DNA of 64,000 bases from Alphaproteobacteria bacterium (GCA_965237415.1 CBDEFM010000002.1:576001-640000); one strand, 5' to 3'; counted from the stretch's first letter, positions 890 through 3,222 are shown. Notes: generated by a model not told the origin, from the letters alone. Numbers and translations are program-made.

Positions 890-1849
890 ATGAGCGAGGG
901 TTTCTACGAGCCGGTGAGCGGCATGGACATGCCGCGCTTCAGCGCGATGCCGACCTTCATGCGGCTGCCCCATGTCACGGATTTCTCGGCCGTGGACATC
1001 GCGCTGGTCGGCGTGCCCTGGGATAACGGCACCACCAACCGCGCCGGCGCCCGCCACGGCCCGCGCGAGATCCGCAACATGTCGAGCCTGATGCGGCGCA
1101 CCCATCACACGCTCGGCATCTGCCCCTACGAGCTTTGCCGGGTCGCCGACTGCGGCGATGCGAGCGTCAACCCGATCGATCTGAACGACACGATCGGTCG
1201 CGTCGAGCGCTTCTTCACCGCGCTGCACGAGGCCGGCGCGGTGCCGCTCTCGGCCGGCGGCGACCACCTCATCACGCTCCCGGTCATGCGAGCCATCGCC
1301 AGGGACCGACCCCTCGGCCTGATCCATTTCGATGCTCACTCAGACACGTGGGACAGCTATTTCGGCGGCTTCAAGATCACGCATGGCACGCTCTTCCGCC
1401 GCGCCGTTGAGGAGGGGCTGCTCGACCCGAAGCGGACCATCCAGATCGGCATACGCGGTTCGGTCTACGACCTCCACGACATGGACTTCGCGCACGACTC
1501 GGGGATGCGCGTCATCACCATCGAGGAGTATTTCGATCTCGGCTGGGAGAAGGTGGTGGCCGAGGCCCGCGCCGTCGTCGGCGACGGCCCGACCTACATC
1601 AGCTTCGACGTGGACGGGCTCGATCCGGTCTATGCGCCGGGCACCGGCACGCCCGAGATCGGTGGCTTTTCGACCTACGAGGCGCAGCGCATGTTGCGCG
1701 GTGCGCGCGGCCTGAATCTGGTTGGCGGCGACGTGGTTGAGGTCGCACCTCCCTTCGACCCCAGCGGCAACACGGCGCTGGTGGGGGCCACCATGATGTT
1801 CGAAATCCTGTGCGTGCTGGCTGAGGCGGTGGCCGCCGCCAAACGCTGA
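890..1849 (+). CDS. Ureohydrolase (agmatinase / guanidinopropionase GpuA-like)
   Basis: GGDHL, HFDAHSD, SFDVDGLDP and PGTGTPEIGG Mn-binding motifs; ATG at 890 after GGGGAGGGG (ORF track start 587 is an over-extension). Confidence 0.9.
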   Translation: MSEGFYEPVSGMDMPRFSAMPTFMRLPHVTDFSAVDIALVGVPWDNGTTNRAGARHGPREIRNMSSLMRRTHHTLGICPYELCRVADCGDASVNPIDLNDTIGRVERFFTALHEAGAVPLSAGGDHLITLPVMRAIARDRPLGLIHFDAHSDTWDSYFGGFKITHGTLFRRAVEEGLLDPKRTIQIGIRGSVYDLHDMDFAHDSGMRVITIEEYFDLGWEKVVAEARAVVGDGPTYISFDVDGLDPVYAPGTGTPEIGGFSTYEAQRMLRGARGLNLVGGDVVEVAPPFDPSGNTALVGATMMFEILCVLAEAVAAAKR

Positions 1850-1863
1850 CAAGGGAGGGGACG

Positions 1864-2334
1864 ATGAACGACGAAACCTACATGCGGCGGGCGATCGCGC
1901 TCTGCGAAGTGAAGATGGCGGCCGGCGAAGGCGGCTACTGCGCGACGATCATCGTGCGCGACGGCGAGATGATCGGCGAGGGCTGGAACAATGTTGCCGA
2001 GAACCACGACGCCACCGGCCATTGCGAAATCAACGCCATCCGCGACGCCGGCAAGCGTACGGGAAACTGGGACCTCTCCGGCTCGGTGCTCTACACGACG
2101 TGGGAGCCCTGCGTCATGTGCGCCGCGGCGATCTGGTGGGCGCGGATCGATCGGGTGTTCTACGGCAATCTCCTCTCCCAAGCAGCCGAACTCGGTATCG
2201 ACATCAGCGAGCTGGAGACCGAGGTCGCGACTTCGAGCGAGCAGCGCAGCCGCCCCTACCGGCGACTGCTGGGCGATGAAACCTTCGCCATGTTCAAGGC
2301 ATGGTGGGACAGCGGGGACCGCACCACGATCTAA
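1864..2334 (+). CDS. Zn-dependent nucleoside/nucleobase deaminase (CDA/TadA fold, guanine-deaminase-like)
   Basis: HCE (HAE variant) and EPCVMC motifs; SD GGGAGGG. Confidence 0.85.
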   Translation: MNDETYMRRAIALCEVKMAAGEGGYCATIIVRDGEMIGEGWNNVAENHDATGHCEINAIRDAGKRTGNWDLSGSVLYTTWEPCVMCAAAIWWARIDRVFYGNLLSQAAELGIDISELETEVATSSEQRSRPYRRLLGDETFAMFKAWWDSGDRTTI

Positions 2335-2340
2335 TGGCGC

Positions 2341-2369
2341 TTGCACCGCTGAAGCGAGCGCGCCATATA
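2341..2369 (+). promoter_or_regulatory. Sigma70-type promoter for the small ORF/sRNA unit
   Basis: TTGCAC (2341-2346), 17-nt spacer, CATATA (2364-2369), resembling the alphaproteobacterial RpoD consensus. Confidence 0.55.
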
Positions 2370-2403
2370 CGAAATGTCGTCAACAACGAAAGGAGGTGAT
2401 CCA

Positions 2404-2478
2404 ATGTGTGACAGTCGTAAACCGCGATCGGCGGTCACCGTGATCTGGGTCTCCCCCTGCGATGGGGCCCACGGCTGA
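2404..2478 (+). CDS. 24-aa small ORF (MCDSRKPRSAVTVIWVSPCDGAHG) within a structured transcript; possible dual-function sRNA
   Basis: ATG immediately follows GAAAGGAGGTGATCCA; upstream promoter and downstream hairpin. Confidence 0.5.
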   Translation: MCDSRKPRSAVTVIWVSPCDGAHG

Positions 2479-2514
2479 CGGTGACGACGCGATCTGCGGA
2501 TCGCGGATTGACAG

Positions 2515-2545
2515 GGAAGGGCCGCCCGATGCGGGCGGCCCTTCC
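2515..2545 (+). terminator. Strong GC-rich hairpin (terminator or stabiliser)
   Basis: Perfect 14-bp stem GGAAGGGCCGCCCG-ATG-CGGGCGGCCCTTCC; no clear U tail. Confidence 0.6.
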
Positions 2546-2589
2546 AACGTTACGGGTGCGCGCGCGGGGCGCTAGCCCTGGCGGCTCGC

Positions 2590-3129
2590 ATGATCGAGGG
2601 TGTGCCGGAGGTCGCCGCGACGGGCGTGATTCCCGCAGGATTCTGGCGGCGCGTGGCGGCGTGGGTCATCGACGGCATCCTCGTGATGGTGAGCTTCTTC
2701 ATCGTTGGGATTTACCTCTGGCCCGATCTGGTGGAGACCACGACGCTCGTCTCCCAGGTCGATGGTGCGCGGTTGGAAACCGTGCGCTACGCACCGACCA
2801 TGCTAGGCACTGCGGTTCTCGGCATCGCCTTCTGGGCCTACGTGGCGCTCCAGGAATGCGGGCCGGCCCAGGCGACCCTCGGCAAGCGGATGCTGCGGCT
2901 GCAGGTCACGGGGCTTGACGGCGCGCGCGCCTCGCTACTCACGGCAAGCTTCCGCAGCTGGCCGCGCTGGCTGCCGGGGATTCTCGGGGTCATCGGCATT
3001 CTCGATGCCATCGGAGGCCTTGCCGCCCTTGCCGCTTGTATCGCTGTCGCCTTCACCCGACGCAAACAGGGGCTGCACGACATGATGGCACGGTGCCTGG
3101 TGGTGCGCCGGCCGCCGCCTGTCCTATGA
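2590..3129 (+). CDS. RDD family membrane protein
   Basis: AGFWRRVAAWVID, QATLGKRML and QGLHDMMA motifs with TM segments. Confidence 0.88.
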   Translation: MIEGVPEVAATGVIPAGFWRRVAAWVIDGILVMVSFFIVGIYLWPDLVETTTLVSQVDGARLETVRYAPTMLGTAVLGIAFWAYVALQECGPAQATLGKRMLRLQVTGLDGARASLLTASFRSWPRWLPGILGVIGILDAIGGLAALAACIAVAFTRRKQGLHDMMARCLVVRRPPPVL

Positions 3130-3222
3130 GGAGCGCGCGGAGGGTACTCGCACCGGCTGGGCTTTTGCGCCATGATCGCGCGCCGGCGGGGCGGGGAGCC
3201 GGCTGGGGCAGGGGGCGAAGAG

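Follow-up and report, generated by a model that had tools for sequence, protein, structure and literature searches.

The Locus and Its Complement to the 16S rRNA Tail

The window analysed in the present study, a stretch of 64,000 nucleotides from an alphaproteobacterial genome (GCA_965237415.1, CBDEFM010000002.1:576001-640000), contains a 255-nt spacer between a deaminase-family gene and an RDD-family gene (Table 1). The spacer holds, in this order, a promoter-like block, a CAACAAC leader, a 16-mer complementary to the 3′ tail of 16S rRNA, an ATG opening a frame of 24 codons closed by TGA, and a 14-bp hairpin. An arginase-family (agmatinase-like) gene of ordinary appearance is located just 5′ of the deaminase gene (890-1849, + strand; Pfam PF00491, E 3e-91).

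Table 1. Features of the spacer and its flanking genes, with positions counted from the first nucleotide of the window.
Feature	Position	Strand	Description
Deaminase-family gene	1864-2334		Pfam dCMP_cyt_deam_1
Promoter-like block	2340-2369	+	TTGCAC (2341-2346), 17-nt spacer, CATATA (2364-2369)
CAACAAC leader	2381-2387	+	Near-invariant in alignments A1 and A2; adjoins the 16S complement on its 5′ side
RF01867 match	2381-2542	+	Model positions 1-159 of 159; 62.5 bits, E 1.1e-12
Extended Shine-Dalgarno (SD) sequence	2388-2403	+	Perfect 16-nt complement of the 16S rRNA 3′ tail of the same genome
Small ORF	2404-2478	+	ATG (2404-2406), 24 codons, TGA stop (2476-2478)
P1 closing stem, 5′ arm	2414-2417	+	Predicted to pair with 2509-2512; only four pairs in this window
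Long-range stem, 5′ arm	2422-2433	+	Predicted to pair with 2495-2506
16S-tail mimic, CUGGGUC..CCCCU	2445-2458	+	Inside the ORF; predicted closed-form partner of the SD (2391-2403)
SD-like copy (anti-mimic)	2464-2476	+	Predicted open-form partner of the mimic (2443-2457); extends as far as the stop codon
3′ arms	2495-2512	+	Long-range stem (2495-2506) and P1 (2509-2512)
Terminator-like hairpin	2515-2545	+	14 bp (2515-2528 with 2532-2545), loop 2529-2531, G+C-rich, without a T run
RDD-family gene	2590-3129	+	

Read on the opposite strand, the end of the 16S rRNA gene of the same genome (...CGGCTGGATCACCTCCTTTCTA) contains the 16-mer, GAAAGGAGGTGATCCA, which can therefore pair without mismatch with the 16S tail of this very cell; the 16-nt match to the 16S 3′ end, noticed in the initial annotation, is thus confirmed against the genome's own gene, and the 24-codon ORF that it had placed directly after the match is found there as well. 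The complementarity comprises exactly 16 nt, and the flanking bases on either side are unmatched. When one mismatch is allowed, the 16-mer has two matches in the whole 4.75-Mb genome, namely itself and, on the opposite strand, the 3′ end of the 16S gene; with up to two mismatches, the window contains a single match, and dinucleotide-shuffled sequences contain 0.04 on average (4 of the 100 shuffles had at least one). The duplex between the 16-mer and the 16S tail has a predicted energy of -30.8 kcal/mol, versus -7.0 kcal/mol for GGAGG/CCUCC, and in the same-genus relatives that start with GTG the complement reaches 17 nt. The ATG follows GGAGG by 7 nt; another ATG, in frame with it at 2374, gives an ORF of 34 aa. 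On the 5′ side, the CAACAA block abutting the 16S complement is near-invariant across the aligned clades.

The TTGCAC-17 nt-CATATA block was recognised by eye in all 18 aligned sequences of the same genus. A scan of 1800-3200 with an E. coli-type consensus, which is not informative for this organism, called neither promoters nor terminators, so that the promoter of the initial annotation stands as a conserved -35/-10-like block and not as a proven promoter; the start of the transcript is inferred at about 2375-2377. At the other end of the element, the terminator helix is 96.2% paired in alignment A2, which comprises 47 sequences of the window's own genus and the related MSHC clade, and nine of its ten pairs have changed on both sides. 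The terminator stem (GGAAGGGCCGCCC ... GGGCGGCCCTTC; 2515-2545, A2 columns 202-245) has nearly identical letters across families and orders, and this unusual sameness hints at a role beyond termination.

Assembled metatranscriptomes contain the element as well. From run X8, a contig of 181 nt extends over 2347-2521 with a single difference; contigs of runs X1 and X2 extend from the deaminase gene through the element, break at the foot of the hairpin (2514-2519) and have unlike letters beyond it; contigs of run X5 cover the flanks and not the element, the uncovered parts being uninformative. Contig ends or divergence at the hairpin foot were thus seen in three runs from two studies (X1 at 2519, X2 at 2514 and X8 at 2521), and these breaks at 2514-2521 could mean that assembly stopped at the inverted repeat or that the sampled strains have another downstream context. 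Contigs from RNA libraries lend weak support to a transcript across the element, as assembled contigs indicate presence and not level, ends or strand, DNA carry-over is possible, and depths were not used for ranking expression.

Relationship to CC2171 and the rre Small mRNAs

An Rfam search at gathering thresholds yielded no match over the whole window. A permissive scan of 2250-2650 revealed a match to RF01867, the Caulobacter sRNA CC2171, along the full length of the model; since its 62.5 bits (E 1.1e-12) lie below the gathering score of 75 bits, the element is filed here as a homologue of RF01867 and not as a curated Rfam member. This is also the best RF01867 match in the whole genome (E 3e-12), the others having E-values of 0.0018, 0.095 and 0.18, where the last is the end of the 16S gene itself. 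The RF01867 consensus itself contains GAAAGGAGGUGAUCCAGUG.

The same design is known from the small mRNAs called rre, for ribosome-regulated expression (Hahn et al. 2016, PMC5711450). The representative rreB of Bradyrhizobiaceae was described as a 165-nt mRNA with a 14-codon ORF and a 17-nt complement to the 16S 3′ end, which includes the G of the GTG start; rreR of Rhodobacterales has 18 codons, and 'putative rre analogs' with 16-nt complementarity were listed for Caulobacterales, Rhizobiales and Rhodospirillales, including an ATG start in Azospirillum (PMC5711450). Loci of these types were scored with the RF01867 model: two rreB-type loci, with a 14-codon ORF and an adjoining tRNA-Gly as published for rreB, obtained 49.4 and 47.4 bits, two rreR-type loci 39.8 and 37.3 bits, a Sphingomonas locus 41.4 bits, a Mesorhizobium locus 33.8 bits and a Methylobacterium locus 96.8 bits, the last being the only one of these tested loci to pass the cut-off. 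Judged by their sequences, the CC2171 RNA that Rfam lists as an 'sRNA' belongs to one family with the rre 'small mRNAs', and because own-genus and rre-type loci score below the cut-off, standard Rfam annotation misses whole clades of it.

Expression of CC2171 has been detected by Northern blot in Methylorubrum extorquens (bioRxiv 10.1101/2022.01.24.477521), and in Caulobacter two formerly predicted ncRNAs, listed in Dataset S1 of Schrader et al. (2014), were reported to be translated. The rre paper (PMC5711450) was not among the results of a literature search for CC2171/RF01867, and the term CC2171 is absent from it; the link between CC2171 and rre may therefore be unstated in print. Apart from papers citing it, a search for rreB/rreR brought up no functional follow-up.

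Every rre hallmark that can be read from sequence appears to be present in the window's element, and the region of about 2376-2550 (+ strand) can probably be assigned to the alphaproteobacterial rre class (rreB/rreR) as a stand-alone small mRNA homologous to CC2171 (RF01867). The statement of the initial annotation that the element belongs to no named family was wrong, given the sub-threshold RF01867 match and the fit to the published rre class; since the match is to an already characterised family, the claim of novelty falls, and the published rre/CC2171 family gains a new member from an uncultured genus of Alphaproteobacteria.

At E ≤ 0.001, RF01867 matches were found in 23 of 41 relatives (own genome included). 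The window's genus accounts for 17 matching genomes out of 20, with no match above the cut-off, and the single above-cut-off match among the 41 relatives comes from another family. When one genome per family was taken across the class, 22 of the 151 genomes matched, five of them above the cut-off. A scan of 185,579 species genomes with an exact pattern (extended SD, start codon and TC) revealed at least 119 stretches; nearly all of the 80 matches listed are assigned to alphaproteobacterial taxa, among them Sphingomonadales, Rhodobacterales, Hyphomicrobiales, Acetobacteraceae and Azospirillum, or to proteobacterial MAGs of unresolved position. Two records among the matches listed, labelled 'Alphaproteobacteria bacterium', encode the same peptides as the genus relatives of the window. 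The rre/CC2171 family is widespread in Alphaproteobacteria and, to our knowledge, has the longest natural mRNA:16S pairing known.

Several of these stretches deserve mention on their own account. In a contig of a MAG labelled Gemmatimonadetes (L064:7832-7852, + strand), the pattern includes TTG as the start of an ORF of 20 codons; this is the only non-Proteobacteria label among the matches listed, and mis-binning is possible. The same 21-nt extended-SD pattern precedes a 59-codon ORF in an Azospirillum MAG (L114:3845-4100, + strand), where RF01867 gave no match, and a 48-codon ORF in an Acetobacteraceae MAG (L090:2531-2702, + strand); both ORFs encode hydrophobic, signal-peptide-like N-termini. 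These longer ORFs behind the pattern indicate that a full complement to the 16S tail is not exclusive to rre minigenes.

The genes around the element are limited to clades. Neighbouring ORFs were clustered from 2162 stop-to-stop ORFs of at least 90 aa at 117 loci, many of these ORFs being spurious in high-G+C DNA; the top clusters cover 20 of the 23 loci of the Sphingomonadales type and 18 of the 20 from the window's own genus, and among the top 12 there is no cluster that spans two named clades.

RNA Fold and Small Reading Frame

The RNA of 2376-2550 has a predicted minimum free energy (MFE) of -88.3 kcal/mol (z -4.26), and none of 200 shuffled sequences was as stable. Both nested stems of the initial annotation (2422-2429/2499-2506 and 2434-2440/2479-2485) and its 14-bp hairpin (2515-2528/2532-2545) recur in the MFE fold. 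Two outer helices vary in a compensatory manner in alignment A2: the family-wide P1 (columns 40-46/196-202), which in Rfam joins codons 3-5 to the bases before the terminator, is 78.5% paired, its pair 42-200 being UA in 25 sequences and CG in 13, and the long-range stem (columns 54-64/177-187) is 75.8% paired, with eight of ten pairs changed on both sides and pair 58-183 being AU in 17 sequences and GC in 17.

The RNAalifold consensus of A2 contains, besides the terminator, a pairing of the 3′ part of the SD (columns 24-34) with a CUGGAUC..CCUC segment (columns 76-85), which has the same letters as the 16S tail. This SD:mimic helix is 88.7% paired; its pair 33-77, which involves the base before the start codon, is AU in 41 sequences, UA in four and GC in one, and pair 34-76 tracks GTG versus ATG in one sequence. 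In the window, the duplex (2391-2403/2446-2458) has a predicted energy of -16.2 kcal/mol, the Trp codon UGG (2446-2448) forms the core of the mimic, and the closed form would leave only the 5′ GAAAG of the SD free. The ATG, taking the place of GTG, costs the window's element the 17th pair with 16S rRNA and introduces an A-C mismatch into the SD:mimic helix.

A second partner of the mimic is an SD-like copy located downstream in the ORF. The resulting open helix (A2 columns 68-80/102-117) is 67.3% paired, and its pair 80-102 is AU in 19 sequences and GC in 15; in L021, a sequence of the window's own genus, both sides of the mimic:anti-mimic helix have changed, and in L051, L124 and L108 the third partner at column 105 is adjusted too. 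None of 500 column shuffles reached the observed values in both counts, and slid partners were 34-56% paired, these controls being inflated by the relatedness of the sequences and the second structure having been derived from one of them. The two forms are close in predicted energy, with -88.3 kcal/mol for the open fold and -86.7 kcal/mol for the fold with a forced SD:mimic helix, i.e., within 1.6 kcal/mol. When 113 sequences from all clades were compared with conservative shuffles, the best duplex of the SD with the body of the RNA had a mean z of -1.45, and 38 of the 113 were below -2; the MSHC, own-genus and Rhodobacterales types show a strong signal, and many sequences of the Sphingomonadales type a weak one. 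The covariation suggests that the mimic can pair alternatively with the SD or with the SD-like copy, with compensatory changes in both helices. The hairpin predicted for rreB holds the 16S complement except for its five 5′ nucleotides, and seeding followed by melting was proposed (PMC5711450); beyond the Results and Discussion text of that paper, the present analysis adds the second partner and the compensatory changes.

The reading frame is kept throughout the family. An extended SD, a start codon 7 nt (8 nt in one case) after GGAGG and an ORF of 18-32 codons are found at 41 of 42 RF01867 loci; the exception, L047, is the weakest match (27.7 bits) and the second one in its genome; it has no extended SD and was excluded from all counts. 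The start codon of 40 distinct sequences is GTG in 22, ATG in 16 and TTG in two. The first stop falls at codon 14-32 in all 40 of them in frame 0, versus 5/40 and 6/40 in the other two frames, which have early stops in 22/40 and 28/40; the sequences are related, 18 of them coming from one genus, so that these counts overstate independence, and the contrast between frames is still large. For the pattern matches listed, the frame-0 stop lies at codon 14-32 in 76 of 79 distinct sequences, those outside this range being the long ORFs of L090 and L114 and that of L085, which is cut by the end of the locus. Within the window's genus, all 18 sequences have 24 codons and 15 have GTG at the 7-nt spacing, and within clades the stop codon alternates between TGA, TAA and TAG at fixed positions.

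The encoded peptide follows another pattern. The pN/pS ratio is 1.17 for the own genus (16 distinct sequences), 1.18 for the Sphingomonadales type (20), 0.83 for the Rhodobacterales type (8) and 0.95 for the MSHC type (13), where the values are pooled over related sequences and RNA constraints on synonymous sites push them up. In these four clades the three codon positions vary alike, without an excess at the third position, and the peptide families are unrelated between clades. Selection thus appears to act on the open frame and not detectably on the peptide; the comparison of homologues, by which the initial annotation had proposed to weigh structure against coding, bears out compensatory changes in the helices and not purifying selection on the codons, pN/pS being about 1.

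A functional micropeptide (24 aa here), with the extended SD merely setting its expression level, is an unlikely product, even though the start codon, frame and stop position are conserved, 20 Sphingomonadales-type sequences share MSHGSA..., the pattern MS.C..PRS...V.W is common to the own genus and the MSHC clade, and Hahn et al. argued that RreB and RreR are conserved (PMC5711450). Besides the pN/pS values and the lack of kinship between the peptides of different clades, it is opposed by the coincidence of the conserved residues with RNA pairings, as the mimic has the Trp codon at its core and the P1 arm is formed by the His-Cys codons. No Pfam or NCBIfam family was found for the 24-aa or the 34-aa reading, and synthetic RreB and RreR peptides were reported to be unstructured and their overproduction to be without phenotype (PMC5711450). 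The highly expressed micropeptide offered in the initial annotation is not supported, given the same ratios of 0.83-1.18 in four clades and the very weak translation of the homologue rreB.

A purely non-coding, trans-acting sRNA with an incidental ORF, as the Rfam type 'Gene; sRNA' would have it, seems very unlikely. The stable fold, the several covarying helices and the apparently unselected peptide would agree with such an RNA, but not the start codon at a fixed spacing in 41/41 SD-carrying sequences, the frame that stays open for 14-32 codons in 40/40 when the other frames meet early stops, or the stop that switches between TGA, TAA and TAG at a fixed position; moreover, rreB-EGFP fusions were translated (PMC5711450). 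A cis-acting leader or attenuator of the RDD-family gene, which lies on the same strand 45 nt downstream and is preceded by a leader-peptide-like ORF and then a terminator hairpin, is exceedingly improbable, since the neighbour families are shared within and not between clades, which argues against a leader role for one downstream gene, the context is not conserved outside the family according to Hahn et al. (PMC5711450), and the alternative pairings involve the SD and not the terminator.

Proposed Mechanism and Comparison with Known Systems

The reading of the element as an rre-type small mRNA can be extended by the published behaviour of rreB. In Bradyrhizobium japonicum, rreB co-sediments with 30S subunits, to which it binds tightly; its translation is very weak because of the extended SD, and an ATG start raised translation in rreB constructs (PMC5711450). 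Its decay depends on the start codon, the half-life rising from 10 to 37 min upon a swap of GUG to UAG, and overexpression in B. japonicum gave no growth phenotype, the function being called elusive (PMC5711450). The suggestion of the initial annotation that the RNA traps or senses ribosomes fits the 30S co-sedimentation, the weak translation and the start-codon-dependent decay, insofar as they may be carried over from rreB.

By analogy with rreB, a 30S subunit with an unoccupied 16S tail would seed on the free GAAAG, displace the mimic and hold the RNA tightly; the over-long SD helix would slow the step into elongation, so that translation would be weak, and engagement of the start codon by the ribosome would lead to decay of the RNA. 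Since the peptide differs between clades and pN/pS is about 1, capture and translation would matter and not the peptide; selection would act on the loading and passage of the ribosome, which would unwind the mimic and its partner and end its way near the stop at 2476. The window's element has ATG, which raised translation in rreB constructs, and the description 'weakly translated' may therefore hold less well here. A simple role as a ribosome sponge is doubtful, given that overexpressed rreB had no growth phenotype.

A bolder reading, which we consider rather improbable, is that rre/CC2171 RNAs are three-part bistable switches, composed of the extended SD, the 16S-tail mimic and the SD-like copy, which report free 16S tails and are not peptide genes. 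If this were true, capture of the SD by the 30S subunit would hand the mimic to the SD-like copy or free it, and once free, the mimic could have targets in trans, either mRNAs with an SD or factors recognising the 16S 3′ end. Translation would reset the switch and destroy the RNA, and the ORF would be a timing device rather than a coding sequence. With two partners for the mimic, the 'seed and melt' idea of Hahn et al. would become a switch that can be tested. The identity of CC2171 and rre, the kept frame with an apparently unselected peptide and the two-partner mimic are the additions made here; they are refinements and do not amount to a new kind of element.

The closest known counterpart is found in rreB. 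Both elements come from alphaproteobacterial hosts and have a 16-17-nt 16S complement that includes the SD, a start codon directly after it, a tiny ORF, an SD that is predicted to be partly sequestered with a free 5′ toehold, and a hairpin at the end; a stand-alone RNA of about 165-175 nt, as known for rreB, would be expected of the window's element too. They differ in the ORF (14 codons with GTG in rreB, 24 codons with ATG and an unrelated peptide in the window), in the length of the complement (17 and 16 nt, respectively) and in the neighbours, as rreB adjoins tRNA-Gly (PMC5711450), whereas the window's element is flanked by the deaminase and RDD genes. The combination of an extended SD and a small ORF is shared with rreR and the putative rre analogs as well; unlike the window's element, rreR has 18 codons, and the 16S-tail mimic of the Rhodobacterales type is located 3′ of the ORF and not inside it. 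The CC2171 consensus of RF01867 has the same extended SD, GUG and the codons UCU CAU UGU, with P1 and the terminator common to both, but Rfam classes it as a non-coding sRNA, and in its consensus structure the SD is unpaired, unlike in the rre reading. The extended SD motifs described in Staphylococcus aureus (PMC13009471) likewise form SD helices beyond the canonical length at translation starts; as reported there, they occur genome-wide in ordinary Firmicute mRNAs, whereas the element described here is a dedicated minigene whose complement spans the whole of the 16S tail.
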